Part shown: positions 8,638 to 52,837 of the stretch, one piece after another
Position numbering within the stretch: the first letter of the stretch is position 1
Layout: each line of letters starts with the position of its first letter
Assembly: GCA_965207995.1 (NCBI GenBank)
Contig: CBDBNG010000001.1
Coordinates: 4,681-68,680, forward strand
Length of the DNA: 64,000 bases
Direction of reading: 5' to 3'
DNA from: Dehalococcoidia bacterium
GTDB lineage: Bacteria > Chloroflexota > Dehalococcoidia > SHYB01
Program-made: the position numbers and the translations under genes
The notes under the pieces: model-generated
What the model was told of the DNA's origin: nothing
Database searches by the model: none
Seen by the model: only the letters and a program-made list of their open reading frames with translations

Positions 8638-9678
8638 TCATCGCTCCTCCCCCATGTCTTGCGCCTCCAGCAGCAAGCGAAGGGTCTGGGCCGACGTCCT
8701 CTCCTCCACCTCCGCCATGAAGACATCTGCCGATGGAAGGAAATAGTCTTCTGCGGGCCACAGGTCTCCCACAGGTGGAGGGTCGGCAAAGGTGGCAACC
8801 TTCTCCGGGTAGTGCACATAGGCTTCACGGACGCTCCGGCGCAGGGCTTGCACCAGGCTCAGCGCCTCGCTGATGCTGATTTCGTCCTCCGGGTATGACC
8901 AGGTGGTCGCACCCATGACGTCACCCACCTGCCAGTCGGTCTTGGGCGAGTTCGGGTCGCTGTTGTGGCAGACCACGCACGCCTCCGCCGAGGCGATGTC
9001 CGAGAACATGGCGGTCTGAAAGCCGATATCCGGGTCCAGGAAGAACTGCGGCTCGCCGGTGCGCCTGATGACTTGAAAGTGCTCTGTCTGCAAGCCGGTG
9101 AACTTGTTGGCGTCATTGATCGGGAAGTCCGAGCCGAGGAAGAGATACAGGGGAACCGGACTACGACAGAGACCCTTGGCAGTCTCCCGCAGGAAGAGCG
9201 CCGGAAGCGGCCCGGCGTGCGTGGGGGTGATAGGGTCGTCCTCCAACGAGGTGTCCTGGTGGCAGTGGGTGCAGAAACCGATGGTGGGCTGAGTCACCCG
9301 CACCCCTTGGTGCTCGGTGTGGCAGGCGACGCACATGTGGGCCTCGATGTGCTCCCGTGCATCGGCGAAGCGCGGCTCGAGGAAGCGGGAGATCGGGTGC
9401 CGGTCGTCAGGCCTCTCGTGGCAGTCCAGACAGGCTGCGTTACCGACATCCTCGGAGCCAAAACCGATGGTGGACTCCCGCAGGCCCAGCCAGTCGTAGA
9501 CGTTGGAGTTCAGTTGCTGCGCGGCGGTGCCCGCTACGGCTGAGTGGCATTCCTGGCAGCCCAATCCCTCGTGGCCAGTGTTCATGGGCCCCTTGGCAAC
9601 CAGCGCGTTGCGGTCCGGGAATGTGAGAAACGCCACCAAGAGCAGGCCCAGCGCGACGACCGACTGCAACGCCGACAT
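8638..9678 (-). CDS. Pentahaem c-type cytochrome with signal peptide
   Basis: The ORF translation has five CxxCH motifs (CQECH, CLDCH, CVACH, CTHCH, CVVCH). The N-terminus is hydrophobic (MSALQSVVALGLLLVAFLTF). Confidence 0.8.
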   Translation of the reverse strand: MSALQSVVALGLLLVAFLTFPDRNALVAKGPMNTGHEGLGCQECHSAVAGTAAQQLNSNVYDWLGLRESTIGFGSEDVGNAACLDCHERPDDRHPISRFLEPRFADAREHIEAHMCVACHTEHQGVRVTQPTIGFCTHCHQDTSLEDDPITPTHAGPLPALFLRETAKGLCRSPVPLYLFLGSDFPINDANKFTGLQTEHFQVIRRTGEPQFFLDPDIGFQTAMFSDIASAEACVVCHNSDPNSPKTDWQVGDVMGATTWSYPEDEISISEALSLVQALRRSVREAYVHYPEKVATFADPPPVGDLWPAEDYFLPSADVFMAEVEERTSAQTLRLLLEAQDMGEER

Positions 9679-36212: not shown

Positions 36213-38474
36213 TTGAAAGAGTTATTTCAGAAACTGACGAGACGCGGAGAACGGCAGCCCTCAGAGGAGGGCGTCGTCCGGCTGGGCAGTGCGGGCAACG
36301 AACAGGAGACCGCTCTCCAGCCGGAACAGCCCGCACCCAAGCCCATACCCGAAATACCCCTCTTCTTCATGCTGTCGCACCTGGAGGAGGACGGCCCGGT
36401 GAGGCTGGACGGGGTGAAGATCGGCGTGTGCGAGGTGATGGGGCTTGAGATCGACGAGCCGAAGCTGGGGGCCTTCGCCGGGGCGCTCAACGCCCTCGAC
36501 TTCCCCGTCCAGCTTCTCATCCGCCAGCACCCGCCGCGCCTTGGCGGTCTGAAGGAGAAGCTGCAAGAGGCCCAACCCGACTACCTGCCGCCGCAGACGA
36601 AAGCGGCGGCCGAGTCTCTTGGACGACTACTCACCGACCTTGAGTCGCGGGACGGCATCCTCGACCGGCGCTTCTACACCGTGTGCGAGCACACTCGCGT
36701 CGACGAGCTGCGGGGCCTGCTGGCGCGGTCAGGGCTGTCCGTGCATCCGCTCAGGGGCAGGCAGCTTCGGATGTTTTTCGTATCGGCAGTCCTGGGCGGG
36801 TCTCCAGCCGAGTTCGACGAGGGAGCGAACGCCGAGGTCGAAATCAACCGGCGCGACATGCGCATTGGCACGCATCTCATCCGCTCCCTTCACCTGGGCA
36901 AGTGGCCGAGATCGCTGGCCCCAGGGTTCCTGCAAGGACTGATGGCGGCGGGAGCGCCCATGGACCTGTCCATTCACCTGGGGCCGATACCCGCCGAGCA
37001 GGCGGCGAGGACCCTGGAGTGGCAGAAGGTCCGCTTCGAGTCTGCGCAAAGCCTTTCGTTCAAACGGGGCAGAACCATGTCGCCGGACGCGGAGATCGCC
37101 CTGGAGGACGTGACAAGGCTCAGGGACGAGGTGCAGCGGGGAAGAGAGCGTCTATTTCATTCCTCATTATCCGTGACCCTCCACGCCAGGGACGAGGACT
37201 CGCTGAAGGAGATGACGCAGCGGGCGAAGGCCCACTTCGCCGCGACCCTGGGCAAGCTGGACAACCTGGCCTTCCGCCAGCGTGAGGGGCTGCTCTCGAC
37301 CTTGCCCCTGGGACTGAACGCCGTGGCCGAGTGGAGGACCCTGGACACGTCCAGCCTTGCGAGGCTCTTCCCCTTCTCGCCGCCGGACCTGGACACAAGA
37401 AACGGCACCCTCTACGGCATCGACATGCGGGCCTGCTCCCCGGTGGTCTACGACCCCTGGGACGGCACCCACCTCAACGCCAACACCGCCGTCCTCGCAA
37501 GATCGGGCAGCGGCAAGAGTTTTGCGACGAAGCTCGGAGTGCTCAGGGGTCTGACCAGGGGCGTCACCGCCTACGTCATCGACCCGGAGGGCGAGTACGC
37601 GGACATGGCTCGCGCCGCCGGAGGCCGTGTGCTGTCCCCCGGAGTTGAGGGCCAGGGCATGAACCCCTTCGTCATCGACCGGGGAGACGACGAGGAGCTG
37701 TTACAGCGCATCGGGAGCCTGCGCCGTCTGATTGAAGTCATGGTGGGCGAGAGCCTCGGAGCGGAGCGCAGGGCCTCCCTGGACCACGCCCTGGCCGGCT
37801 ACTACGCCCAGCACAGGCAGCGCACCGGCTTCCGCGACTTCTACTCGTACCTGGAAGGGGAAGCGCCGGACATAGCCCACCTGCTGAGACCCTTCGCCAC
37901 CGGCAGCCTGCGCAACCTCCTCTCCGACGAGGGGGACGACCTGCTGGGGAGCGAAGCTCTCGTCACCGTGTTCGACCTGCGGCTCTTGGAGCCGGAGTTG
38001 CGACCCGCCGCCGCGATGGTCTGCACCGAGACGGTGTGGGCGGCGGCCGCCCAGGACCCCAAGCCCCGCCTGCTGGTGGTGGACGAGGTGTGGAGCATCA
38101 TGCAGCACCCGGAGGGCGCGGCCTTCATGGTCAGCATGGCGAAGAGAGCAAGAAAACACCGGCTGGGGTTGCAGTTCATCACTCAGGACGTGCAGGACCT
38201 GCTCAGCGAGGACTCCTCTCGCACCATCACCGGCCATTCGGGAAGGGCGCTTCTTCAGAACGCCGCCTTCAAGCTGCTGCTCCAGCAGGACGCGGCGGCG
38301 ATAGCCACCGTGGGCGACGCCTTCGACCTGCCACAGGACCTCCAGCGCTGGCTGCTGTCCTGCCCCCGTGGTGACGGGCTGCTGCTGGCCAGGGGACACC
38401 GTTTCCCCGTGCGCATCGAGGCCACGCCGGAGGAGACAGCAGTAATTGAGTGGAGGCCGGGCAAACACAGATAA
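36213..38474 (+). CDS. VirB4/TrbE-family conjugal transfer ATPase
   Basis: Walker A is ARSGSGKSFATKL, Walker B is LLVVDEVWSIM, and RKHRLGLQFITQDVQDL is also present. Length is 753 aa. It uses a TTG start with RBS AAGGAAA upstream. Confidence 0.8.
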   Translation: MKELFQKLTRRGERQPSEEGVVRLGSAGNEQETALQPEQPAPKPIPEIPLFFMLSHLEEDGPVRLDGVKIGVCEVMGLEIDEPKLGAFAGALNALDFPVQLLIRQHPPRLGGLKEKLQEAQPDYLPPQTKAAAESLGRLLTDLESRDGILDRRFYTVCEHTRVDELRGLLARSGLSVHPLRGRQLRMFFVSAVLGGSPAEFDEGANAEVEINRRDMRIGTHLIRSLHLGKWPRSLAPGFLQGLMAAGAPMDLSIHLGPIPAEQAARTLEWQKVRFESAQSLSFKRGRTMSPDAEIALEDVTRLRDEVQRGRERLFHSSLSVTLHARDEDSLKEMTQRAKAHFAATLGKLDNLAFRQREGLLSTLPLGLNAVAEWRTLDTSSLARLFPFSPPDLDTRNGTLYGIDMRACSPVVYDPWDGTHLNANTAVLARSGSGKSFATKLGVLRGLTRGVTAYVIDPEGEYADMARAAGGRVLSPGVEGQGMNPFVIDRGDDEELLQRIGSLRRLIEVMVGESLGAERRASLDHALAGYYAQHRQRTGFRDFYSYLEGEAPDIAHLLRPFATGSLRNLLSDEGDDLLGSEALVTVFDLRLLEPELRPAAAMVCTETVWAAAAQDPKPRLLVVDEVWSIMQHPEGAAFMVSMAKRARKHRLGLQFITQDVQDLLSEDSSRTITGHSGRALLQNAAFKLLLQQDAAAIATVGDAFDLPQDLQRWLLSCPRGDGLLLARGHRFPVRIEATPEETAVIEWRPGKHR

Positions 38475-38479
38475 GGACA

Positions 38480-39740
<1,261 letters not shown>

Positions 39741-39774
39741 GACACACGAAATTCAACATACAAGGAAGAGAACC

Positions 39775-42423
39775 ATGAAGATGAACCCGATGAAGTGGCT
39801 GACGAACGATGAGGGGAAGAAAAAACCAGTGCTGCTTGCGGTGACGCCGCCCAGGACGGGTGAGCGCACCCTGCTGGGGGTGGAGAACCTGCTCCAGTCC
39901 ATCGCGGTGCCGGAGCCATTCTCCCTGGAGCTTGCCGGGGACATGGACGGCGTGACGCTGATGGCCCGCTGCCTGGACGACAAGGTGGTGCGCGGCCAGA
40001 TAAGCGCCCACTACCCCCAGGCCCGCATCCTGGACGTCGAGCCGGAGGACGACCCCCTCAGGCTCGACGAGGGAGAGCAGGCGTGGAGCATGACGCTGCG
40101 GGCCGACGGCCCCGATTACGTGCCCCTGCGCACCTTCCGGGACGACGACCTCCTCGACCCCGGCTCCGACCCCCTCATCGCCCTGTTGGGCGCGCTGTCC
40201 AACCTAGGGGACGACGAGCGCGTCGTGGCCCAGCTCAAGCTGAACTCCCTGGGGCCGGACTGGTCGCAGGCGCACATGGAGAAGGCCCACAAGAAGCCCG
40301 TGCCGGAGCGATACGAGCCCTCCTACAAGTACCAGACCCGGCCCCTCCAGACCGACGGGGTGACGATGGCCGTGTTGGGCGTTGCGGCGTTGGCCGCGCT
40401 GCGGGGCTACCTGTGGGTGCAGGCGGGCGAGGCGTGGAAGGCGATTCTGACGGGCATCGGGGTCAGCGCCGCGCTCATCGCCGGGGGCTGGCTGTGGCAC
40501 AAGTGGAAGAAGGCCCGCAACCGGGTGTACGACCCGCTGCTGATACGCGAAAAGGTCTCCCGCATCGCCTTCGACGGAGAGATACAGGTGACGGCGGTCC
40601 TGCCCGCGACGGAGAATGCGAACGAAGGCCGACGGCGGGCGAAGGCGCTGCTGGAGCCGGTGGCCGCCGCCTACCGCCACTACGACCATCCCGCTGGGGC
40701 GCGGTTCAAGGTGGGCAGGGTCCGGCCCGTCGTGCCCGATCGGTCAATGCTACACCCGTCAGGCCCCGGCCTGTTCGGCAGGCGGAGCGTCCTGGGGGTC
40801 CGCGAGGCGGCGGCGCTGTGGCACCCGCCTGGGGCCAGGGACGAGACGCCGCTGGTGGAGCGGTCCGGCTCGCGGGCGCTGATCCCATCGGCCAGGGGCG
40901 TGCGGGGCGGCGCGCCGGTGGGTGAGACCACGGGGGGCAAGGCCCGCCCCATCCACTTCCCCGACGACCTGCTCAGACGCCACCACCTCTACGTGGCCCG
41001 CACCCGCATGGGCAAGTCCACACTGATGCAGCACATCGTCCGGCACAAGATGCGGGAGAAGGCGGCGGGCAGGGACGGCGACGCCATCGTGGTGGTCGAT
41101 CCCCACGCCGACCTGGTGGAGGCGCTGCTCAGACACGTGCCGGAGTCGCTCATCGACAGGGTTAAGGTCATCGACCTGTCCGACAAGCGGGGGGCGCCCG
41201 GAATCAACCTGCTGGACGCCCGCATCTTTGCCGACCGCGACCGCACCGCCGACTCGGTGGTGCGCATCGCCAAGGGGCTGTGGGACCAGTGGGGGCCGAG
41301 GATGCAGTCCATCCTGGAGCAGACCGTCAAGACCCTCCACGAGGTCAACGAGCGCCCCGACACGGCCGACGACGAGCAACTGACCATTCTGGACGCGCTC
41401 ACGCTCCTGGCCGACGAGGAGTTCAAGAACGGCGTGCTCAAGCAGGTCTCCGACTCCTACCTCATCCGGTGGTGGCGCAGGGACTTCAAGGGGTGGCGGG
41501 GTGAGACCCGGGCCGACGCCCTGGCCCCGGTGCAGACCCGCCTCAACTACTACGCTTCCTCCAAGCGGGCCAGGGCCATCCTGGGACAGCCCCGCTCCAC
41601 CATCGACCTGCGTAGCGTGATCCGGGAGGGCGGAGTCCTGCTGGTCAACACCGCCCAGGGCAAGGCGGGAAGGGACGTGGCGGCCCTGGTGGGCGCGTCG
41701 CTTCTCAACCTGGTGGACGCGGTGATACGGGAGCAGGGCGACCTGCCGCCTGAGCAGAGACGGGGCGCATTGGTCGTCGTGGACGAGATGCAGTCCATGC
41801 CCGGCGTGGACTACGAGTCGATGCTCTCGGAGCTTGGGAAGTTCGGGGCCAGCTTCGTGCTGGCCACCCAGAGCCTGGCCAAGCTGGGGGACCTCTCCCT
41901 CACCATGCGCGACACCCTGCTCGCCAACGTGGGCTGCCTCGCCGTCTTCCAGGTGGCGGGCAACGACGCGAGGCAGCTTGTGTGGGAGCTGGGCAAGGAC
42001 CGGGTGAGCGAGGAGGACATCGTATCGCTGCCTGTGCACCAGTGCTACGTCCGAGCCACGGTGGGAACGGAGCGGATGCCCACCTTCTCCATGATGGTGA
42101 GCAAGCCGGAGCACGGAGCCCCCGCCGTCGCCGAGCGCATCCGCGTCGAGGCGGCCTCCTACCTGACCACCGACGAGGAGATCGCCGCGCAGCAGGCCGG
42201 GGCCGAAGAGCGCGCCGAGGAGTTCCGCAAGGCAGGCAGGCAGGCCGGTGAGGACAGGAGCGCCTCGACCGAGGAGAAGAAGGACGCGCCCAGGGACCTG
42301 GGGCGGAGCGAGCAGCGCAGCAAGCACTTCCAGCCGCCCACCGGCAGGTCCGCCGAGAACGCCGACGACGTGGAGGGGGCGGAAGAGGCTCAGGACGCGG
42401 AGGCAGGGGAGGCCGAGGAATGA
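39775..42423 (+). CDS. Type IV coupling protein (TraD/TraG/VirD4-family ATPase)
   Basis: N-terminal TM helices are followed by Walker A ARTRMGKSTLMQ and Walker B ALVVVDEMQSMPG, and it has an acidic C-terminal tail. The start at ATG 39775 has RBS AAGGAAGAG. Confidence 0.7.
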   Translation: MKMNPMKWLTNDEGKKKPVLLAVTPPRTGERTLLGVENLLQSIAVPEPFSLELAGDMDGVTLMARCLDDKVVRGQISAHYPQARILDVEPEDDPLRLDEGEQAWSMTLRADGPDYVPLRTFRDDDLLDPGSDPLIALLGALSNLGDDERVVAQLKLNSLGPDWSQAHMEKAHKKPVPERYEPSYKYQTRPLQTDGVTMAVLGVAALAALRGYLWVQAGEAWKAILTGIGVSAALIAGGWLWHKWKKARNRVYDPLLIREKVSRIAFDGEIQVTAVLPATENANEGRRRAKALLEPVAAAYRHYDHPAGARFKVGRVRPVVPDRSMLHPSGPGLFGRRSVLGVREAAALWHPPGARDETPLVERSGSRALIPSARGVRGGAPVGETTGGKARPIHFPDDLLRRHHLYVARTRMGKSTLMQHIVRHKMREKAAGRDGDAIVVVDPHADLVEALLRHVPESLIDRVKVIDLSDKRGAPGINLLDARIFADRDRTADSVVRIAKGLWDQWGPRMQSILEQTVKTLHEVNERPDTADDEQLTILDALTLLADEEFKNGVLKQVSDSYLIRWWRRDFKGWRGETRADALAPVQTRLNYYASSKRARAILGQPRSTIDLRSVIREGGVLLVNTAQGKAGRDVAALVGASLLNLVDAVIREQGDLPPEQRRGALVVVDEMQSMPGVDYESMLSELGKFGASFVLATQSLAKLGDLSLTMRDTLLANVGCLAVFQVAGNDARQLVWELGKDRVSEEDIVSLPVHQCYVRATVGTERMPTFSMMVSKPEHGAPAVAERIRVEAASYLTTDEEIAAQQAGAEERAEEFRKAGRQAGEDRSASTEEKKDAPRDLGRSEQRSKHFQPPTGRSAENADDVEGAEEAQDAEAGEAEE

Positions 42424-44078
42424 GTCCCATCGAAGCCGACCTGTTGCGTCTTCTCTCCCACATGCCCCTCATCGACCGGCTGGAGGCGGTCGCCGTCTCT
42501 GGCTGGTCCAGGGGCGCGGTCTACAAGGCGGTCGAGAGCCTTGAGTGGGCCGGGCTGGTCGCATCGGCCCCCCACGCCTCGGAGTTGATTGCGCCGACCC
42601 GCCGCTACTGCCTCACCGCCGCCGGGCTGCGCCGGTTGGCTGACGAGGAGGGCAAGAGCGTGGACGGGTTGCTCCGCAACCGTCCCGTCTCGAACCAGTG
42701 GCGGCGCGCGCTCCTGGAGCGGCTGGACGCCGTGGCGGTCGTCCACCGGCTGGCATCCGCCGTCTCCGACCTCGCCCACCCCGTCCGCCTCCGCTGGTAC
42801 CGGGCCATGCCCATGGACGCCGCCATAGCCCTTCCCGACGGGCGGGTCATCGCCGTGGTCAGGCAGGGAGCGGCCACCGACCGCACCGGTGTTTCGAAGC
42901 GGCTCTGGCGGCTCAGGGAGGGGACCCAGCCCGCCGCGACGCTCCTGCTCATGCCCGACGAGACGCGGCTCAGGCACGCCCGCAGGCTGATGGCCGGAGC
43001 GCCGTTCGTCTCCTACCTTGCACTGGAACGGGACGCGGCCTCGGCGGGGGCCGGAGCGGCCGTCTGGCGCACCCCCTCCGGGGACACGCTCCTCGACCTC
43101 CGAGAGTGCCTCGGCCACACCGGGCCGAGTGGCTCCTGGCCCGATGAGCCGCCGACGGCGAGGGCCTCACTCCCCACGGAACTCGGAGATGCGGCCGGAG
43201 AGGACTGGATGCTTCCCGCGACGCTGACGCCCGTCGAGAAGCGCGCCCTGGACCTCAGCGTCGACTGGCCCTGGCTCGCCCCCGCCCATCTGGGCGCGGT
43301 CATGGGGCTGAGGCGCTCCAGGCTCTCGGAGGTCGTCGGACGGCTGAGCGTCCTGGGCCTGGTCTTGGACATCCGCATGGAGGGCAGCCGCCGTCTCGCC
43401 GCCTCTGACCGGGGGCTGGCGACGCTGGCCCGCAGGGACCGCGCCTCGGTGGGAGCTGCCAGGAAGCGGTGGAGCGTCGCTCCCCTGGACGATGAGGCCC
43501 CGCTCTCGTGGCGCAACGTCTCCGGCAGGCGCAGCAGGCAGCTTCTCCGGAACATCGAGCACACGGACTCCGTCCACGCCTTCATCGCCGCCCTGGCGAG
43601 GCAGGCCCGCTCACGATCCAGGGAGATCGTCCAGCTCGACCCGCCCCGCAGGGCATCCCGCTACTTCCGCCACGCCGACCGGCTGCGCTCCGTCCACCCC
43701 GACGCCTTCGGCGTGCTGCGATGGCGAGACGCCGTCTGGTCCTTCTTCCTGGAGTGGGAGCGCCGCGCCGTGCGGCCCGTCACCATGGCGGCGCGCATCG
43801 CCCCCTACCTGCGCTACTACTCCTCCCACCGGCCCGCCGACGACCACGGGGCGCGTCCAGACGTGCTGGTGGTCTTCCACGACGAGCTGGCGGCCACTCA
43901 CTTCCTGCGCATCGCCGGTGAGGAGATGGAGCGGGTGGGCGTGGAAATCCCCCTGCTGGTATCCCACCGGAAGCTGCTGGAGCGGGAGGGGCCGCTGGGC
44001 CGCGTCTGGCTGTTTCCCGGCGGCGGCCACGAGCCGGTGCATCCCCCAACCGACAACCGAGGAGCACGACGCCCATGA
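42420..44078 (+). CDS. Replication-relaxation-family (putative relaxase/mobilisation) protein with N-terminal winged-helix domains
   Basis: N-terminal MarR-like wHTH repeats are present. It sits directly after the coupling protein with a 4-nt overlap. Confidence 0.4.
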   Translation: MSPIEADLLRLLSHMPLIDRLEAVAVSGWSRGAVYKAVESLEWAGLVASAPHASELIAPTRRYCLTAAGLRRLADEEGKSVDGLLRNRPVSNQWRRALLERLDAVAVVHRLASAVSDLAHPVRLRWYRAMPMDAAIALPDGRVIAVVRQGAATDRTGVSKRLWRLREGTQPAATLLLMPDETRLRHARRLMAGAPFVSYLALERDAASAGAGAAVWRTPSGDTLLDLRECLGHTGPSGSWPDEPPTARASLPTELGDAAGEDWMLPATLTPVEKRALDLSVDWPWLAPAHLGAVMGLRRSRLSEVVGRLSVLGLVLDIRMEGSRRLAASDRGLATLARRDRASVGAARKRWSVAPLDDEAPLSWRNVSGRRSRQLLRNIEHTDSVHAFIAALARQARSRSREIVQLDPPRRASRYFRHADRLRSVHPDAFGVLRWRDAVWSFFLEWERRAVRPVTMAARIAPYLRYYSSHRPADDHGARPDVLVVFHDELAATHFLRIAGEEMERVGVEIPLLVSHRKLLEREGPLGRVWLFPGGGHEPVHPPTDNRGARRP

Positions 44079-44815
44079 GAATCTACTACATCGACGACGC
44101 CGAGGGTCCCGCCTGCTACGTCCGCTCCGCCCTGGGCGTGGACGCCGAGGGATGGAACCGGCTGCACGGACGCTTCCAGGACTGGCGCTACGCGATGGCG
44201 GGCGACTACAACGTCCCCACCCGCCTGAAGCTGAGCCCCCGCGACCTGCTGGCCGACAGGGGCAGGGGGGTGCGCATCGACAACACCGGACGCAGGCTCA
44301 CCCCGGAGCAGGGGGCCGAGATCTTCATGAACGGTCTGCGCGTCATCAGGGGAGCCGCCACCCATCGCGGGGGCATCGAGGTCATCAACGTCTGCCTGCG
44401 CAAGGCCGACGTGCCGGGCTACGAGCGGCTCAGCCTTGACCGGCTCCTCGACCGCATCGACGCCTCCGTCTCGGCGGACGACCGCTACGCCCACCTCGTC
44501 TTCGACGACGACGGCGAGTGGGTGGTCGAACAGCTCTACGGCAGGCCCAGGAGCCGCCACGGGGTGGGGGAGGACGCCGGGCGAATCGGCGACATACCCA
44601 TCGAGCGCATAATCGGCGACCCCTCCTTGCGAAGCTCCGAGGACGACGACCTGCTTCAGATGGCCGACCTCATAGCCCACGCCCTGCTCAAGCAGGAGGA
44701 GCAGCCCTCCGAAAGGGAGGCGGAATTGAGCCTCCACCTGGCCTTCGGCATCCTCAAAGACACCCTCAACCACGAGGCGTCCAGGACAGACCCCCAGGGC
44801 ATCGTCCGAAGGTGA
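44075..44815 (+). CDS. DUF3800-family protein
   Basis: The N-terminus RIYYIDDAEGP and the C-terminus QMADLIAHAL are typical of DUF3800. Confidence 0.55.
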   Translation: MRIYYIDDAEGPACYVRSALGVDAEGWNRLHGRFQDWRYAMAGDYNVPTRLKLSPRDLLADRGRGVRIDNTGRRLTPEQGAEIFMNGLRVIRGAATHRGGIEVINVCLRKADVPGYERLSLDRLLDRIDASVSADDRYAHLVFDDDGEWVVEQLYGRPRSRHGVGEDAGRIGDIPIERIIGDPSLRSSEDDDLLQMADLIAHALLKQEEQPSEREAELSLHLAFGILKDTLNHEASRTDPQGIVRR

Positions 44816-44844
44816 GGTAGGGAGAGACGCGGAGGGAACCCGAG

Positions 44845-46230
44845 TCAGGAACTGCTTCCCTGTACCGTAGGCGAGCCATCCGGGCCGTCGAGCGGCTCCA
44901 GGTCCTTAGGTCCTATGACGAACCTTCTGCCGTCCACCTCGACAGTGGCCGCGGAGAACCTCAGCAGCGTGCCCACCTTGCCTTCCTCGCCATCCCAGGG
45001 ACGCTCCGGTGGCACCCGGACCTTTCCTCCCTCCCAGAATCCCCTGGTCGCCGCTCTGCGGTCCGGCTCAGGCTCCGCCCCGAGTTCTGACCGCAGTTCC
45101 AAGCCGTCGGTCTCACCCTCCGGCGTCTCGATGGTCCGTTCAATCGCCAGCACGCGCCGCACCTTCCCCGGTTCCAGCAGCTTGGCGACTTCTCCGTCCA
45201 CGACCACCACATCCATGAGCGAAGGGGCCTCGACTTCCCCCAGCCACGCCCAGCAGCGGCCCACCCACTCGACCCCAACCCGGTCGTCCTCGCCAAACCG
45301 CGTCTGCGCGACCAGGGCACGGTCCGCCACGACGTCGAGCAGCAACTCGACGACATCGTCCTCTTCTTCGATTTCACCGTTCGCTCGACTTTCGCCTGTG
45401 AGGTGCGGCGGCGCGTCCGCACTGTCCAGCGGCTCCAGGCTGTCCAGTCCTGTGCCGAACCGTTTGCCGTCCACCTCCACCACTCCCGTGTGGAACCGCA
45501 ACAGCGTGCCGATCTTGCCCGGCTGATCACGTGAAGACCGCCATGCTATGCGGACCTTCCCTCCCTCCCAGAGCCCTCTGGCCGTCGCTCTGAGTTCCGG
45601 TTCGGGCTCCGCCCTGAACCCTCTGAACTCCATCCATACTTCCAGTCCGCCGACCTCGCCCTCAGGCGTCTCGATGGTCCGTTCAGTCGCCCGCACGCGC
45701 CGCACCTGTCCCGGCTCCAGCAGCTTGACGATCTCACCGTCCCTGACCGCCACGTCCACGAGGGAAGGGGATTCGCCCTCGGTCAGCCACGCCCAGCAGC
45801 GACCCACCCACTCGACTTCCATCCGGCCGTCCTCGCCGAGCCGCGTCTGCGCGACCAGGGCACGGTCCGCCACGACGTCGATGCTCGTTGCTCCGGTCTC
45901 ATGGGTCTCCTCAGCCTTCGCTTCCCACGCGGCCGCTCCCTCTTGCGAAGATTCTTCCCGTAGCACGTGGGCGAGCGCCTCCAGCACCTGCGGGTCGTGA
46001 ATGGCGCTGTCGTCAACCGGCTCCGGGGCTTCGCCCTTCGCCTTGCCCTTCCTTCGCCGAAAGTACGACTTCCGGTAACAGTTGGGGCCGCACCAGCCCA
46101 GGGTGGGATTCGTCCGCACCCGCAGCCGCACGTAGATCCGCCCGCACTCGCGGCAAACCTTCTTTCTGCCCCTGGACATTTGCTCGAACCTCCCCCGGGT
46201 CTCGATCTGGTCCTTCAGAGGAAGGGACAT
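44845..46230 (-). CDS. Hypothetical protein with N-terminal zinc-ribbon and two ~160-aa tandem repeats
   Basis: CRECGRIY...CGPNC is the zinc ribbon. The repeat DVVADRALVAQTR(L/F)GED...LEPLD occurs twice. Confidence 0.5.
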   Translation of the reverse strand: MSLPLKDQIETRGRFEQMSRGRKKVCRECGRIYVRLRVRTNPTLGWCGPNCYRKSYFRRRKGKAKGEAPEPVDDSAIHDPQVLEALAHVLREESSQEGAAAWEAKAEETHETGATSIDVVADRALVAQTRLGEDGRMEVEWVGRCWAWLTEGESPSLVDVAVRDGEIVKLLEPGQVRRVRATERTIETPEGEVGGLEVWMEFRGFRAEPEPELRATARGLWEGGKVRIAWRSSRDQPGKIGTLLRFHTGVVEVDGKRFGTGLDSLEPLDSADAPPHLTGESRANGEIEEEDDVVELLLDVVADRALVAQTRFGEDDRVGVEWVGRCWAWLGEVEAPSLMDVVVVDGEVAKLLEPGKVRRVLAIERTIETPEGETDGLELRSELGAEPEPDRRAATRGFWEGGKVRVPPERPWDGEEGKVGTLLRFSAATVEVDGRRFVIGPKDLEPLDGPDGSPTVQGSSS

Positions 46231-46392
46231 CCGCGTAGCTGCGGGAACCGAAGCGGTCGGTGAGCGCCTTCACGTCGTTTATGACGCCGCGCCCATTGTC
46301 CACCTTACGGGTCGGAAAGGGCAACCGGATTCCTGTCAACGGAACGCTCGCGACGGGAGCGGGGGCTACGAGGCCCCGGTTTGAGAGGGCTT

Positions 46393-46704
46393 CTACGTCC
46401 GCCTCATCGCCAGCACCGCGTCCGGGTCCAATCCCTCGGCCATGTCCCGGTCGGGGCACGTCAGAATCCCATCCCGCAGTCCCATCGCTCCCGCGATGGT
46501 GAAGAGGGCGAACAGATGGATATGGTTGGGGGCCACCTCCCCGCTCTTCCACTTCCTGATGCGGTCGGGGTTGACTCCCAGAAGGCGGCCCAGGGCTCGC
46601 GTGGACAGACCGCTCCTCTTCTGGAACAGCGCTATCCGCTCGGGGAAGTCCGGCGGCATGACCCACACGACGGGCAGCCCATGCACCCGACGCTGCACGC
46701 CCAT
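46393..46704 (-). CDS. Small HTH protein (paralogue of next gene)
   Basis: GLSTRALGRLLGVNPDRIRKWKSG is HTH-like. Confidence 0.45.
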   Translation of the reverse strand: MGVQRRVHGLPVVWVMPPDFPERIALFQKRSGLSTRALGRLLGVNPDRIRKWKSGEVAPNHIHLFALFTIAGAMGLRDGILTCPDRDMAEGLDPDAVLAMRRT

Positions 46705-46708
46705 CGCC

Positions 46709-47047
46709 CTAATCCTCTCCGCCGCTTGCCGAACGCTGGGAACCGGCGGCCAGGGGCGGCTGCAACACCCAGCCGACGGGAGGGATGGCGTGCACGTCGA
46801 AGAGGATGTAAAGCCCACCGGGGATGCGGGACGCCAGCTTCACCAGCGCGCACATCCCGTCCCCGCTGGGACTGGTGCCGTCTCGCCACCGTTGAAGCTG
46901 GCGGGGGTCCACGCCCAGGCACGCGGCCAGACCCTCCCACGTGAGGAAGGTGGCCTCCTTGAAGGCTTCGAGGCGAGCGCCGAAGTCCTCCGGCACGGAG
47001 GTGTCGCAGAAGAGAAGGTGGCGCGGCGGCACGGAGCTGGGCCTCAT
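46709..47047 (-). CDS. Small HTH protein (paralogue)
   Basis: LTWEGLAACLGVDPRQLQRWRDG is HTH-like. It has similar architecture to 46393-46704. Confidence 0.45.
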   Translation of the reverse strand: MRPSSVPPRHLLFCDTSVPEDFGARLEAFKEATFLTWEGLAACLGVDPRQLQRWRDGTSPSGDGMCALVKLASRIPGGLYILFDVHAIPPVGWVLQPPLAAGSQRSASGGED

Positions 47048-47283
47048 TCGACATCCTCCAGGTAGAACAGGTCGTCGAAGTCGGTGACGCCCAGGGCGTC
47101 CATGAGCCTCTTGCGGAAGGCCGCAGACGGGCAGCGGTGCCCCGACATGAGCTGGGAGAGGTAGCTGGACGAGGTGCCGACCAGACGCGCCAGCTCGTTC
47201 TGGCTCATGTTGAGCCGGTTGAGGATGGCCCACATCTTGTGGGGATCGAGCCTGACCCGGAACGCGGGCTGCCTGCGACTCAC
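47044..47283 (-). CDS. XRE-family HTH transcriptional regulator
   Basis: LNMSQNELARLVGTSSSYLSQLMSG. Confidence 0.75.
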   Translation of the reverse strand: MSRRQPAFRVRLDPHKMWAILNRLNMSQNELARLVGTSSSYLSQLMSGHRCPSAAFRKRLMDALGVTDFDDLFYLEDVE

Positions 47284-47621
47284 GCCGCGCCCTCCTTCCG
47301 GGTCTTCTTCCCGCCAGCGCCGTTGCGGTACAGGTGGGGATTGACCAGGTAGTGGCGGGCGATGATGCGGGCCAGCATACGCAGGCCCTCGATGCGCCTG
47401 CGCTCCTGATTCTTGGTTAGCTTTCGCTTGCCCCTGCTACTCACGCGTTCCATCTCTCTACCAGAGTCCGGCGCTGCAATGAAGGCATGGCCTTGGAGAG
47501 CGCCGGTGCTGTATACTCATTACAGTATTAGCTATGTTGTTCTGCATGCGTAAGTGTAGCAATATACCGATGGTCAACACAATGACAAAACGGCGCTATC
47601 AGAGCCTTTACGGGCAACTTG

Positions 47622-47650
47622 TTGACAATCGCTCGCAATCTTGTAACAAT
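47622..47650 (+). promoter_or_regulatory. Sigma70-like promoter TTGACA-N16-TAACAA, followed by two TGATTTAGC direct repeats (47650-47658 and 47682-47690), in an AT-rich divergent intergenic region
   Basis: Seen directly. It is oriented towards the XRE gene at 47735. Confidence 0.45.
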
Positions 47651-47734
47651 GATTTAGCGGGTAGTTAGCAGTGATTTAGCAGGATGCGGAGTGCGCAAAG
47701 CTGTTCGCACCTGCGGACTCAAAGAGGAGACGAC

Positions 47735-48166
47735 ATGGATGAACTTGAGGAGAAACAGGACGTTGAAGATCGCCAAAAGATCGAGAGCGACGAGCCCATC
47801 GGCCCGCTCCTGCGCCGTCTGCGGGGAGGGCAGAGCCTGCGGGACATCACCCGGCGCATCGGCGTCTCCTCCTCCTACCTCTCCCAGATAGAGCGAGGCG
47901 ACCGGAACCCCGGCTCCAACCTGATCTACAAGCTGGCCGACCTCTACAACGTGGACCCCAGGGATCTCATGAAGCGGGTGGGCAGGGAGGACCACATCGA
48001 CCCCTACAGCCAGGAGGCGATGGACGTGGACCGGGCCTACCAGTACGTCCTAGCCGACCCCGTCTTCCGCGTCGGCACCCGGCCCGACGGCCCCATCACT
48101 CTCAAGACCAAGCGGTTCATCGTCGAGATGTACGAACGATTCGCCAACAAGAGGCTGCTGGAATGA
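47735..48166 (+). CDS. XRE-family HTH transcriptional regulator
   Basis: LRDITRRIGVSSSYLSQIERGDRNP. RBS AGGAG is 8 nt upstream of ATG 47735. Confidence 0.8.
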   Translation: MDELEEKQDVEDRQKIESDEPIGPLLRRLRGGQSLRDITRRIGVSSSYLSQIERGDRNPGSNLIYKLADLYNVDPRDLMKRVGREDHIDPYSQEAMDVDRAYQYVLADPVFRVGTRPDGPITLKTKRFIVEMYERFANKRLLE

Positions 48167-49113
48167 ACGGAACGAGAGTGGACTTCTGCATCAATCTGCT
48201 GGACGACGCCCTGGAGCGGGGACTGGACCCCGAGGGCATCGCCGCCCGCTTCGTGCGCTACTTCAATCTGTCGGGCCATCCCACCGTGCCCGAGCTGACC
48301 GTCCTGCTGAAGGAGGCCGGGTTCGGGGAGGTGTCGGGCAAATGCAGGGAGAGCCTGGACGTCAAGGGCATCCACTTCAGTTCGCCGGGCGGCGGCTACG
48401 ACATCCACTACCGGGAGGACCTGTGGGAGGGCTCCAAGGAGCACACCGTCCTCCACGAGACCTTCGAGATCATCGACGAGACCCTGTGCGACCTGCACTC
48501 AGGCTCCGCACCCGCGCGCAGGGTGTGCTGGCAGGCCGACCGGTTCGCCGCCGCCGCGCTGATGCCCCCGGACGTGTTCTCCCTCTTCGCCGAGGCGTCG
48601 GGGTTCGACGTGGTGGCCCTCCAGGGGATGTACCAGCGCGCCTACTCGTCCGTCGCCATCCGTCTGGCCGAGGTGATGCGCCACCAGCCCCTCCTTGCGG
48701 TCCTGTACGAGCACAGGGAGAAGGGAGACCCGCGCCTGTGGCCGCCGACGGCGACCCTCGGCGACTTCTCCGCGAAAGTGGTGGCGCGGACGCCGGGATT
48801 CAGGCTGAGGATGCAGAAGCGGCCCCTGTCCTCCCTGCGGGGGCTGCTGCCCCGCAGAGGCGCTCCGCCCACGCCGGGATCGGTGACCGAGCGGGTGATC
48901 CTCACCGGCAGACCCGTCTACGTGGAGCGGGTGAGCGGCTACGACCTGTGGCGGAATGACGACGTGACCCTTGCGGCGAGGCCCGTGGTCTGGTACGGAA
49001 GAGTAGCCAAGATAGCCTTGGTCGCCGTGCCGTACAGAGACCGCTCGGTGCTGGCCCCGCAGCTGGGCCGCGCCTGCTTCGAGCGCATCCCTCACTCCCA
49101 CCAGGTGCTCTAG
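48163..49113 (+). CDS. ImmA/IrrE-family metallopeptidase-like protein (partner of XRE regulator)
   Basis: It is co-oriented with and overlaps the upstream XRE gene, which is the COG2856-type arrangement. It has an HETFE metal-site-like motif. Confidence 0.6.
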   Translation: MNGTRVDFCINLLDDALERGLDPEGIAARFVRYFNLSGHPTVPELTVLLKEAGFGEVSGKCRESLDVKGIHFSSPGGGYDIHYREDLWEGSKEHTVLHETFEIIDETLCDLHSGSAPARRVCWQADRFAAAALMPPDVFSLFAEASGFDVVALQGMYQRAYSSVAIRLAEVMRHQPLLAVLYEHREKGDPRLWPPTATLGDFSAKVVARTPGFRLRMQKRPLSSLRGLLPRRGAPPTPGSVTERVILTGRPVYVERVSGYDLWRNDDVTLAARPVVWYGRVAKIALVAVPYRDRSVLAPQLGRACFERIPHSHQVL

Positions 49114-49183
49114 GGTTGAGGCCAGGTTGCTCAGTGATGTATAGTAAGACAAAGCACTACATATAAAGGCAACAAGAGAGAGC

Positions 49184-49417
49184 ATGACCACTCCCAGGCG
49201 TTCCAAGACCATCACCTTCTCGCTGCCCCCGGAGATGGAAGCGCAGGTCAGGCGGGTGATGAAGGAGGACGACCTCTCCGTGAGCGAGCTCCTCCGGCAG
49301 GGTATACGCCTGTTCATGGAGGAGCGGGAGTGGCGAAGACGGGAGCGGCTACAACGGCTGCGCTCCCGCACGACTGCCAAGCACGACGACACAGACACAG
49401 GGAGGAGGAATCAATGA
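49184..49417 (+). CDS. Ribbon-helix-helix (CopG/Arc-like) DNA-binding protein
   Basis: TITFSLPPEMEAQVRRVMKEDDLSVSELLRQGIRLFMEE. Confidence 0.6.
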   Translation: MTTPRRSKTITFSLPPEMEAQVRRVMKEDDLSVSELLRQGIRLFMEEREWRRRERLQRLRSRTTAKHDDTDTGRRNQ

Positions 49418-51006
49418 ACGACAAGCTCGATCTGATACCGGCGGCCCTCTACGCCAGGGTCTCCAGCGACCGCCAGGACGTGGACCTGTCCGTGGCGGCA
49501 CAGCTAAGGGCGCTCAGGGACCACGCCGAGAAGAACGGCTACCTCGTCGTCCGCGAGTACGTGGACGAGGCAGAGAGCGGACGCATCGCAGATAGGCCCC
49601 AGTTCCAGAAGATGCTGGACGAGGCGGGCAAGCCCGAAGCCCCTTTTAGGGAGATTTTGGTCTGGAAATTTAGTAGGTTCACCAGAAAGCGTGAGCACGC
49701 CGTCGCCTTCAAGTCCATGCTCCGCAGGCGCGGCATCCGCGTCGTCTCCATCACCGAGCACGCCGACGACTCGGCAACCGGCAGGCTCATGGAGGCGATA
49801 ATCGAGTCCGTAGATGAATTCTATAGCGAAAATTTGGCGCAGGAGGTTACCAGGGGGATGAGAGAAGCGGCCTCTCGCGGCTTCTGGGTCACCAGCTACG
49901 CCCCCTACGGCTACAGGAGGGTCTACGTCCAGGACGGTCCCAAGAAGCGCCCCAAGCTGGAGTTGAACCCGCCCGCAGACGCTGTGGTCCGCCGCATCTT
50001 CGACATGGCCCTGAAGGGAAGGAGCATCCTCGACATCACCAAGACCCTCAACTCAGAGGGCATCCCCACCATGAACGGCAAGAGGTGGCTCAAGACCACC
50101 ATTCACACCATGCTGGATAACGAAGCCTACACGGGAGCGGTGGTGTGGGGCATCAGCTCCAAGGACGGCCAGCCGCCCGTGAGGGTGGAGGACGCGCACC
50201 CCGCCATCATCTCCAAGCGGGAGTTCCAGCGGGTGAGGAAACTGCTCGACTCCCGCGCACCCAAGCGGGCGAACCCCAGGCGGACGTCCAGTCCCTACCT
50301 GCTCAGCGGCATCCTCAAGTGCGAGACCTGCGGCAGGGCCATGTCCGCATCCGAGGCCAAGAGCGGCAAGTACACCTACTACGTTTGCCAGTCCCTCATG
50401 AAGAGGGGTAGCGGCGCCTGCAAGACCCCCAGGCTCAACGCCAAGAAGATCGAGAGCACCATCGTCGATGAGCTTCGCTCCAACATCCTCACCGAGTCCA
50501 ACATCAGGGACCTGGTGAAGCTGCTGGACGAGGAGATGGACGGAGCGGCACGGGAGCACCGTCAGAAGCTGGAGAGCATCGACGCGGAGCTTGAGGAGGT
50601 GAAGAAGCAACTGGGACGCGTCTGGCACTTCATATCCACAAGCGACAGCGTGGACGTGGCCGCCGCCTCGGATCACATCGTGGAACTGCGGGGGCGCAAG
50701 GAGAGTCTGGAGAGCGCCGCAGACGAGGCAAGGGCGGTGCTCACTGAGCGGCGGCAATACCTGGACTCAACCGACACCATAGCCACCTTCGCAGAGGAGA
50801 TGGGCGAGTTCCTCGCGACCAGCGAGTTGACCGAGACCAAAGCCTTCGTCCACTCCTTCGTCAAGGAGATACAGGTCAAGCCCGGACGGGCGGCAATCAT
50901 CTACGCCATACCGATGCCGGAAGACTCTCCTATGGGTGGTGCGGACTCCGCTGAAATCGCCCTCAAAGGCGGAGTTCGCAAATCGGGACGTGATGGTGGG
51001 CGCTAG
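49414..51006 (+). CDS. Large serine recombinase (integrase)
   Basis: The N-terminal resolvase domain is ALYARVSSDRQ (catalytic Ser). It also has a recombinase domain, a zinc ribbon CETCGRAM...YVCQ and a C-terminal coiled coil. RBS GGAGGAGGA lies before ATG 49414. Its stop codon overlaps the tRNA-Val 3' end. Confidence 0.9.
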   Translation: MNDKLDLIPAALYARVSSDRQDVDLSVAAQLRALRDHAEKNGYLVVREYVDEAESGRIADRPQFQKMLDEAGKPEAPFREILVWKFSRFTRKREHAVAFKSMLRRRGIRVVSITEHADDSATGRLMEAIIESVDEFYSENLAQEVTRGMREAASRGFWVTSYAPYGYRRVYVQDGPKKRPKLELNPPADAVVRRIFDMALKGRSILDITKTLNSEGIPTMNGKRWLKTTIHTMLDNEAYTGAVVWGISSKDGQPPVRVEDAHPAIISKREFQRVRKLLDSRAPKRANPRRTSSPYLLSGILKCETCGRAMSASEAKSGKYTYYVCQSLMKRGSGACKTPRLNAKKIESTIVDELRSNILTESNIRDLVKLLDEEMDGAAREHRQKLESIDAELEEVKKQLGRVWHFISTSDSVDVAAASDHIVELRGRKESLESAADEARAVLTERRQYLDSTDTIATFAEEMGEFLATSELTETKAFVHSFVKEIQVKPGRAAIIYAIPMPEDSPMGGADSAEIALKGGVRKSGRDGGR

Positions 51007-51070
51007 TGGACTCGAACCACTGACCTCTTCCTTGTAAGGGAAGCGCTCTAACCGGCTGAGCTAAGCGCCC
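50994..51070 (-). tRNA. tRNA-Val (anticodon TAC), CCA encoded
   Basis: The reverse complement folds as GGGCGCT-TA-GCTC...GAGC-G-CTTCC-CTTACAA-GGAAG-AGGTC-AGTGG-TTCGAGT-CCACT-AGCGCCC-A-CCA. Confidence 0.8.
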
Positions 51071-51393
51071 GTGGTGGACTGGCCCGCCACGACCGCCGAG
51101 CAGTCGGGGCAGAATCGCCAATAGGCATAGTCGAACATTTCGCAGGTGTAGAGGTCGTCGGCGGCGAAGGCGACACGCGACCGGCAGCCGGGGCAGGTCA
51201 TCTCGTAGCGGTTCGGGCCGACGACTTCGACTTCGAGGCGGTCGCGGTACCAGCGGAGGGCTGCCTCCGCCGGCGGCTCCCCCGAGGGAAACGGCGACGT
51301 CTCCATCTTGTCGTAACCGAACCAGGCTTGGACCGCCGCGACGAGCTCGTCCAAGGTCGTGATGGTGGGCGGACCCCCCGCGCCGTCGGGCAT
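51061..51393 (-). CDS. Small Cys-rich hypothetical protein (zinc-ribbon-like). Weak call; the 3' end overlaps the tRNA.
   Basis: Paired Cys motifs CPGC...CPDC appear in the ORF translation. Confidence 0.3.
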   Translation of the reverse strand: MPDGAGGPPTITTLDELVAAVQAWFGYDKMETSPFPSGEPPAEAALRWYRDRLEVEVVGPNRYEMTCPGCRSRVAFAADDLYTCEMFDYAYWRFCPDCSAVVAGQSTTGA

Positions 51394-51510
51394 CGCCTCG
51401 GCCTCCGCAAACGTACCTCCTCTCGAAGGTACCGGCGGCGGCGCGTGCCTGTCAACGCTCGCTGGCCGGCAGACCACGTTTGCGGGGCAGGTTGGGTGTA
51501 TAAAGAGGCT

Positions 51511-52587
51511 ATGTTCCGCGCGAGACTCATCGCTGCCGTCGTCTCTTCCCTAATCGTCTTCGCCGCGTGCGTATCCGCCGAGCCGCCGACCCAGCCTCCG
51601 ACTGCGACGCCACTCCCGCCGCCGGTGACGCCCACCGCCACATCGCTTCCTCCAACGCCGACGGTGACGGTGGGCCCGGACCTTCCCGAGATCGACCTGG
51701 GGCGGCTCTACCAAGTCCTCGAGACTGACGAAATCGAGCCCGTCTACGATCCCGTGTTCGAGGCGGCAGGGCGGACTCGCCTAGGCGACGAACAGTTGGT
51801 GATGGGCGTCGCGATCAACGGTGAGGCCAAGGCGTACCCCATTTCCATTCTCCATATCCGGGAGATGGTGAACGACGTGGTGGGAGGCACGCCGGTCCTG
51901 GTCACGTGGTGACCGCTCTGCTACACCGGTCTCGTGCATGACCGGCGGATCGACGGAGAGACCCAGAAGTTCGGCAACAACGGCGCACTCTTCATGAACG
52001 CCATGACGTGGTGGGACTGGAGGACGGGAAGCGTGTGGGCCCAGCCATGGGGTCTGGCCATCGACGGCGAGCTGCGCGGCGCGAGATTGGAGCAGCTCCC
52101 CATGAGCCTGACGACCTGGGGCGAATGGAGGGCCGACCATCCCGGCAGCCTGGTGCTCGCCGACGATCGCTACTACCCGCCGCCCCTCACGGGCGTCGAG
52201 TTCGACCCCGACTTCGTCGTGGGCATCGCGCTCGACGATGCGGCGAAGCACTACCCGTTCCCCACGCTTCAGGAGGAGGTCGTGGTCAACGACTTCGTCG
52301 GCGAGGTTCCCGTGACCCTCTTCACGCCGGCGGGCGGGAACGTCCACGCGTTCGTGCGCCGGCTCGGCGACCGCGTGCTGACGTTCGAGGCGGTGAGCAG
52401 CGAGGTCCCGCGCCTGCGCGACGTAGAAACGGGGAGCGTGTGGGACGCGGCGCTCGGGTTGGCCGTCGAGGGGCCGCTGAGCGGTCTGGGGCTGCAGCGG
52501 GCGCCGACCGCGAGCGCCTTCGATTGGGCCTGGCTCGATTTCTACCCGGACTCCGTCGAGTACCAGGGGCGCGACGCGGCGGAATAG
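51511..52587 (+). CDS. DUF3179-family lipoprotein interrupted by an in-frame TGA (51910-51912) where the family has a conserved Cys. It is either a selenocysteine candidate or a pseudogene.
   Basis: The lipoprotein signal is MFRARLIAAVVSSLIVFAAC. ORFs 51328-51912 and 51934-52587 are in the same frame, and the readthrough reads VLVTW-[TGA]-PLCYTGLVHDRRIDGETQKFGNNGALFMN. This fits the TWCPLC..G.V.DR...G....F...G motif of DUF3179 as I recall it. Confidence 0.55.
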
Positions 52588-52600
52588 CCGGGAGAAAAGC

Positions 52601-52677
52601 TGGCGCGCTCGGCGGGATTCGAACCCACAACCTCAGCCTCCGCAGGGCTGCGCTCTGTCCTATTGAGCTACGAGCGC
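52601..52677 (-). tRNA. tRNA-Arg (anticodon read as GCG; anticodon assignment tentative)
   Basis: The reverse complement is GCGCTCG-TA-GCTC-AATAGGACA-GAGC-G-CAGCC-CTGCGGA-GGCTG-AGGTT-GTGGG-TTCGAAT-CCCGC-CGAGCGC-G-CCA. Confidence 0.7.
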
Positions 52678-52837
52678 GCGAGGGGCGGAGCGAAACCGGC
52701 GACGCGGGTCTCACTCCTGTTAGACGCATGCTCCACTATAACAAAGGGGCGTCCGGCGCGCTAGCTGAAGTTCCCGCTGTCGCTATAATCCCTCCGCGCC
52801 CCGACCCCACCAACATTCCCGGCGCGGAGAGTGTGCT

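Follow-up and report, generated by a model that had tools for sequence, protein, structure and literature searches.

An in-frame UGA in a DUF3179 gene of a Dehalococcoidia bacterium probably encodes selenocysteine

A DUF3179 gene in a contig of a Dehalococcoidia bacterium, located on the forward strand at positions 51511..52587 of the 64,000-nucleotide stretch analyzed here (the window), appears to be one intact selenoprotein gene. A probability of roughly 90% is assigned to the reading that the UGA at 51910..51912 would be decoded as selenocysteine (Sec). The product would then bear a U134-x-x-C137 center instead of the CxxC of the family, and from the comparative evidence below we infer that selenium is actually inserted. 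Translation gave a single frame of 358 codons from ATG 51511 to TAG 52587, in which the TGA, codon 134, is the sole internal stop. According to the preliminary description, the two open reading frames 51328-51912 and 51934-52587 share one frame, and both this and the read-through peptide quoted there were reproduced exactly by the translation. The peptide around the stop reads GGTPVLVTW-stop-PLCYTGLVHDRRIDGETQKFGNNGALFMN, also given as GGTPVLVTW-stop-PLCYTGLVHDRR. The N-termini of two close relatives on long ENA metagenome contigs, L001 (87% identical) and L002 (80%), align from the same Met.

With Cys placed at the stop, the product matched Pfam DUF3179 (PF11376) from residue 73 onward with an E-value of 7.7e-62 and a score of 209.8 bits, against a cut-off of 27; NCBIfam held no model matching the protein. 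The stop lies in the motif W-U-P-L-C (TGG TGA CCG CTC TGC, 51907..51921, forward strand), which is a UxxC version of the family motif W-C-P-x-C. It had been proposed that the TGA falls exactly on the conserved Cys of a DUF3179 motif and that homologues should be aligned at this position. In the alignment of 42 full-length Cys-containing homologues (33-45% identity), the TGA column coincides with the first Cys of W-C-P-x-C, a residue kept by at least 90% of these proteins; the second Cys never varies. All family invariants are present in the window protein at E118, D122, R145, F154-G155, D169, W176, and Q178.

The codon at the motif column was then compared across 84 family copies, which comprise 80 loci of GTDB species representatives (one genome per species), the metagenome copies L001 and L002, and the window. 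The codon is TGA in 57 copies, TGC in 15, and TGT in 12. TGA-type orthologues, which the preliminary description had suggested looking for, were found in many species. The 80 species-representative loci contributed 54 of the TGA copies, with identities to the window protein of 32-50%. Most TGA copies belong to Chloroflexota (Dehalococcoidia, Anaerolineae, SAR202, and Promineifilaceae), and others were found in Marinimicrobia, Nitrospinota, Poribacteria, and one Actinomycetes MAG. All Thaumarchaeota copies in the 84-copy set have Cys. In a neighbor-joining tree, the window sequence lies inside a Sec clade marked by the residues VHDRR, and a second, larger Sec clade is separate from it. The Cys clades are distinct, with the exception of one Cys sequence, L060, nested among the Sec forms. 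Some Dehalococcoidia genomes have more than one Sec-form DUF3179 gene, and every paralogue has a TGA and a hairpin of its own; examples are a tandem pair in L034 (2626 and 3382) and three dispersed paralogues in one MAG, CBDFJV01 (L026, L031, and L074).

Selection on the gene was assessed in the window sequence and its two close relatives, both of which retain the TGA. L001 and L002 have a gene order in common (tRNA-Val, small ORF, DUF3179, tRNA-Arg, luciferase-like gene, FAD oxidase, and tRNA-Leu). Synonymous divergence (dS) among the three sequences is 0.25-0.73, and between the window and its relatives 0.36-0.73. For the 75 codons 5' of the TGA, dN/dS was 0.12-0.34, and for the 223-224 codons 3' of it 0.15-0.22. 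Because dN/dS is low on both sides of a retained TGA, both halves are maintained as coding sequence. A sequencing or assembly error at 51910-51912, with TGC or TGT as the true codon, would need a difference of one base only. However, the identical TGA is found in the independent assemblies L001 and L002, and a local sequencing error is therefore ruled out. The 54 TGA copies from species representatives argue against it as well, as does the 90% cluster of the database homologue P0001, whose 13 members come from different contigs and are all the same C-terminal fragment. The chance of such an error is negligible.

The preliminary description had left two readings side by side, a selenocysteine codon and a fresh pseudogene, in which a recent nonsense mutation from TGC or TGT to TGA would have inactivated a Cys-type DUF3179 gene. 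A single sequence with an in-frame stop in a conserved domain does look like a pseudogene, and gene callers split the gene. Against this, the TGA sits on a conserved Cys and recurs in more than half of the family copies, in several phyla; it has been kept by relatives at the synonymous distances given above; and the codons that follow it are under purifying selection. In addition, a hairpin with compensatory changes goes with the TGA copies and is absent from the Cys copies except L060. The selenocysteine reading was upheld by these data, and the fresh pseudogene was dismissed as extremely unlikely.

The hairpin named in the preliminary description, a 6-bp stem with an 8-nt loop beginning 13 nt after the TGA, was found at 51926..51945 on the forward strand. 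Its 5' arm is CCGGUC (51926-51931), its loop UCGUGCAU (51932-51939), and its 3' arm GACCGG (51940-51945). In an alternative fold, U51932 pairs with A51938 and U51939 is bulged, which leaves a 5-nt apical loop, CGUGC (51933-51937). The published consensus for bacterial SECIS elements has a loop of 3-9 nt, a stem of 4-16 bp, a G in the first two loop positions, a UGA-loop distance of 16-37 nt, and a minimum free energy of at most -7.5 kcal/mol (PMC13188914). The window hairpin satisfies four of these limits outright, with its 6-bp stem, its 8-nt loop, a UGA-loop distance of 19-20 nt, and a minimum free energy of -10.2 kcal/mol, and the earlier remark that it lies about where bacterial SECIS elements sit agrees with the published distance. 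The loop G, G51934, is the third nucleotide in the minimum-energy fold UCGUGCAU and becomes the second only with the U51932-A51938 pair and the U51939 bulge, where the loop is CGUGC as in the larger clade. Against shuffled sequences, this single hairpin stands out only weakly: the z-score is -3.5 when its 20 nt are folded alone, but -0.85 over 41 nt starting at the UGA and +0.78 in a 69-nt context, where it could not be told apart from the shuffles. Its significance rests on the comparative data rather than on single-sequence stability.

The TGA copies align free of gaps from the UGA, and 55 of them were scored for the hairpin, with the stem starting at nucleotide 17 (U of UGA = 1) and two registers considered. 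At least six of seven stem pairs are present in 52 of these TGA copies, compared with one of 27 Cys copies, the one being L060. In the larger TGA clade (46 copies), nucleotides 17-23 pair with 29-35 around a 5-nt loop, and 96% of the positions are paired. Compensatory changes were seen in five of the seven pairs, for example from GGC/GCC to GGA/UCC, GCU/AGC, and GCC/GGC, and some of them alter the encoded amino acids. The covariation score of this clade was reached by none of 500 shuffles, and slid controls were 23-47% paired. In the 27 Cys copies, these columns were 44% paired, and their covariation was not in excess. In the clade of the window (9 sequences), the stem is 100% paired, with six pairs invariant and one compensatory, and neighboring synonymous sites vary. 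The two clades differ in their register: in the VHDRR clade, 6 bp enclose an 8-nt loop, or the bulged-U variant forms, and in the larger clade, 7 bp enclose a 5-nt loop. The loop G is invariant across the TGA copies. The earlier proposal of a candidate SECIS element is thereby strengthened, since the stem-loop is conserved and covarying in TGA copies and, L060 apart, missing from Cys copies. By analogy with other bacterial selenoprotein genes, the mRNA hairpin would bind SelB together with GTP and Sec-tRNASec, and the hairpin-bound complex would be offered to a ribosome paused at the UGA. Like the E. coli fdhF-type elements and the bSECISearch consensus, it is a stem-loop within the ORF shortly 3' of the UGA, its loop lies 19-20 nt from the UGA, and the loop G is followed by U. 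It has no sequence similarity to the E. coli SECIS elements, and its G comes first or second in the loop only when U51932 pairs with A51938.

A covariance model, R1, was built from the larger TGA clade with the clade of the window left out. Its only match in the window was 51904-51963 with 52.9 bits, a score that is partly due to coding homology. R1 scored the Sec forms above most Cys forms, yet the Cys form L013 reached 40.7 bits; because coding homology is also detected, the model is not a clean discriminator of Sec and Cys forms. In L003, a second R1 match of 36.8 bits was observed at 2162-2221 on the minus strand, upstream of the main DUF3179 gene and on the opposite strand, which is probably another DUF3179 paralogue. 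Among the Cys-form copies, only L060 (2011-2070, TGC) has the full 7-pair hairpin, and its position in the tree is within a Sec clade. In this copy, Sec seems to have been replaced by Cys recently, with the SECIS element left behind as a fossil.

Automatic annotation calls two genes in this region, a 133-aa N-terminal lipoprotein ending at the TGA and an independent 217-aa protein starting from GTG 51934, and among the best 120 database homologues (P0001-P0120), 62 are such C-terminal fragments of ~207-217 aa that start at (V)HDRR. As an account of the locus, however, two separate genes are hardly credible. The split would fall inside one Pfam domain and within its most conserved motif, and Cys-type homologues are continuous across it. 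The supposed GTG start (51934..51936, forward strand) is the codon for Val142 in the apical loop of the putative SECIS element, and the 217-aa piece lacks the signal peptide of the full protein. With the single selenoprotein gene as the preferred reading, the 62 fragments are systematic miscalls of Sec-form DUF3179 genes, in which the Val codon of the SECIS loop or a neighboring codon is taken for the start. For annotation, this means that the gene is to be called as one 358-aa selenoprotein and not as two ORFs, and that the same error is widespread. The SECIS element, with its two registers and clear covariation, could be turned into a family-specific model with which Sec codons are called automatically.

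The window was searched for the Sec machinery. No tRNA-Sec was detected in the 64 kb by ARAGORN; ARAGORN and Rfam gave only tRNA-Val, tRNA-Arg, and tRNA-Leu. No match to SelA, SelB, or SelD was obtained in the window by tblastn with E. coli queries. The statement in the preliminary description that the window holds no sel genes is in line with both searches. In a protein-database search with the Chloroflexota SelD of L030, none of the 120 matches listed could be assigned to the long contigs of the relatives, a result that speaks neither for nor against Sec machinery there. In six other loci (L030, L036, L053, L063, L079, and L058), selD was found within ~3 kb of a TGA-form DUF3179 gene. It lies at 5737-6759 in L030, at 277-1272 in L058, at 6495-7130 in L036, and at the ends of L053, L063, and L079; the genes between selD and the Sec-form DUF3179 gene are unrelated housekeeping or membrane genes. 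The selD genes of L030 and L058, whose N-termini are within the locus, carry TGA where E. coli SelD has Cys17. The linkage of selD to the Sec form was seen in at least three lineages (L030/L036, L053/L063/L079, and L058), and selD adjoined none of the 27 Cys-form DUF3179 genes. Selenoproteins have been documented in Chloroflexi (PMC1794560).

Several genes of the window with Pfam support, those for the FAD oxidase, the Replic_Relax protein, and the TrwB-like protein, are terminated by TGA. Since TGA is an ordinary stop elsewhere in the window, there is no genome-wide reassignment, and a local recoding signal is needed. This bears on the alternative that, in place of Sec, one of the standard amino acids (Trp, Cys, or Gly) is inserted through read-through or reassignment of the UGA. 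Some uncultured bacterial lineages have reassigned UGA, which speaks for this alternative, as does the result that none of the sel genes was found in the 64-kb window. Besides the ordinary TGA stops, three observations argue against it. The site is that of a redox or metal-binding Cys, the classic position for Sec; the SECIS-type hairpin with its conserved loop G is specific to TGA copies (52/55 versus 1/27); and selD is located near TGA copies in six loci, in two of them with a Sec codon of its own. Insertion of a standard amino acid is considered very unlikely.

When the window was scanned for TGA codons flanked on either side by coding-like composition, 51910 alone emerged, and no further selenoprotein genes were found in the window. 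The TGA candidates at 7187, 25416, and 45088 were rejected, as their translations are antisense-type junk. At 8638-9678 on the minus strand lies an ORF of 346 aa that contains five CxxCH motifs and ends in TGA; it is likely a multihaem c-type cytochrome, and its terminal TGA does not look like a Sec site.

Within 36213-51070, the genes appear to belong to an integrative conjugative element that ends at tRNA-Val (50994-51070, minus strand). It includes a VirB4/TraC-like ATPase (36213-38474), a TrwB/VirD4-like coupling protein (39646-42423), a Replic_Relax protein (42420-44078), and a large serine recombinase (49414-51006), the last 13 nt of which overlap the 3' end of the tRNA-Val gene. The left end of the element was not found in the window. 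Because L001 and L002 carry DNA unlike that of the window to the left of the shared tRNA-Val, the DUF3179 gene is chromosomal and not cargo of the element.

The N-terminal part of the product was evaluated by inspection. A lipoprotein signal peptide, MFRARLIAAVVSSLIVFAA|C, is predicted at 51511..51570 (forward strand); its lipobox-like motif is FAAC, and Cys20 would be the residue that is lipidated. The N-terminus reads MFRARLIAAVVSSLIVFAAC and is followed by a Pro/Thr-rich stretch. Homologues are arranged likewise, and their N-termini are similarly hydrophobic, followed by A-C or A-A-C. The Pro/Thr-rich low-complexity linker, roughly VSAEPPTQPPTATPLPPPVTPTATSLPPTPTVTVGPDLPE, extends over 51571..51690 (forward strand, end approximate) and joins the membrane anchor to the DUF3179 domain. 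From these features, the protein is most likely extracytoplasmic and membrane-anchored, and it would be lipidated, exported, and held as a lipoprotein on the outer face of the cytoplasmic membrane. Immediately 5' of the ATG, the sequence TATAAAGAGGCT (51499-51510) is conserved in L001 and L002. TATAAAGAGGCT could be a -10-like box of a leaderless or short-leader mRNA, or it could provide a Shine-Dalgarno-like AAGAGG 2 nt from the start. A scan of 51250-52750 with consensus promoters and for terminators returned neither.

The finding is a correct rediscovery, as earlier publications already cover the family and its UxxC Sec site. DUF3179 is listed as a selenoprotein family with the motif UxxC/T (PMC9312934, PMC13188914), and members carry the NCBI name "DUF3179 domain-containing (seleno)protein." For this listing, PMC9312934 cites Zhang and Gladyshev 2007, in which the DUF3179 family was not found named. 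The window gene shares with the described selenoproteins the Pfam family, the Sec at the first Cys, the UxxC motif, and the SECIS element immediately downstream in the coding region. It is one more member with no substantive difference.

No experimental data on the function of DUF3179 were found in the literature, and no solved structure related by sequence was found in the PDB. The AlphaFold2 model of the Cys homologue P0014 (49% identical, pLDDT 87) consists almost wholly of beta strands. The model has no thioredoxin fold, and searches of Pfam, the PDB, and Foldseek returned no thioredoxin-type match. In the Foldseek search of the P0014 model against the PDB, the best matches were Rieske ferredoxins and NirD, which were sub-significant, with E-values of 0.026-0.3 and TM-scores of 0.5-0.6 on targets of ~100 residues. 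The Pfam Rieske families gave no match even at E<=10. According to the alignment, just two Cys are conserved in the family, and no His ligand is. The C-terminal half alone matches the DUF3179 profile with an E-value of 4.7e-12 and, by eye, repeats the N-terminal pattern VxGxxxxxxAKxYP...VND..G..PV without the CxxC. Around ~50 TGA-form loci, no conserved neighbor gene was observed, and AhpC/Redoxin-like genes accounted for only 4 of 94 flanking genes.

The center can be compared with two groups of known proteins. As in the thioredoxin-fold selenoproteins with UxxC or CxxU (Prx-like, DsbA-like, and AhpD-like), Sec replaces the N-terminal Cys of CxxC, which is the usual attacking nucleophile in thiol oxidoreductases (PMC1976440); the predicted all-beta fold of DUF3179 sets it apart from them. 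With the metal-binding UxxC selenoproteins (HMA-domain P-type ATPase, MerT, and CobW-like) and the Rieske/NirD beta domains, it has in common a CxxC/UxxC "knuckle" on a beta-rich scaffold, but the CxH...CxxH ligand set of Rieske proteins is absent from the family. Sec at the N-terminal position of the CxxC fits either a nucleophilic redox center or a soft-metal ligand. Judging from the motif, we prefer a redox-active selenenylsulfide/selenol-thiol pair, for which the odds seem about even. A soft-metal-binding site, likewise suggested by the motif, is the next most likely assignment and is put forward tentatively.

For the family, the codon survey means that most of the sampled Chloroflexota copies use Sec. 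A further and unlikely reading is that DUF3179 proteins are a mainly Sec-using family of extracytoplasmic lipoproteins, in Chloroflexota and some marine phyla, whose UxxC center would capture selenium or a soft metal at the cell surface. It is suggested by the linkage of selD, which lies within ~3 kb of Sec forms in at least three lineages and beside none of the 27 Cys forms. If this reading is true, the family would fill a gap in selenium acquisition, as its extracellular step, and would not be a generic redox protein.
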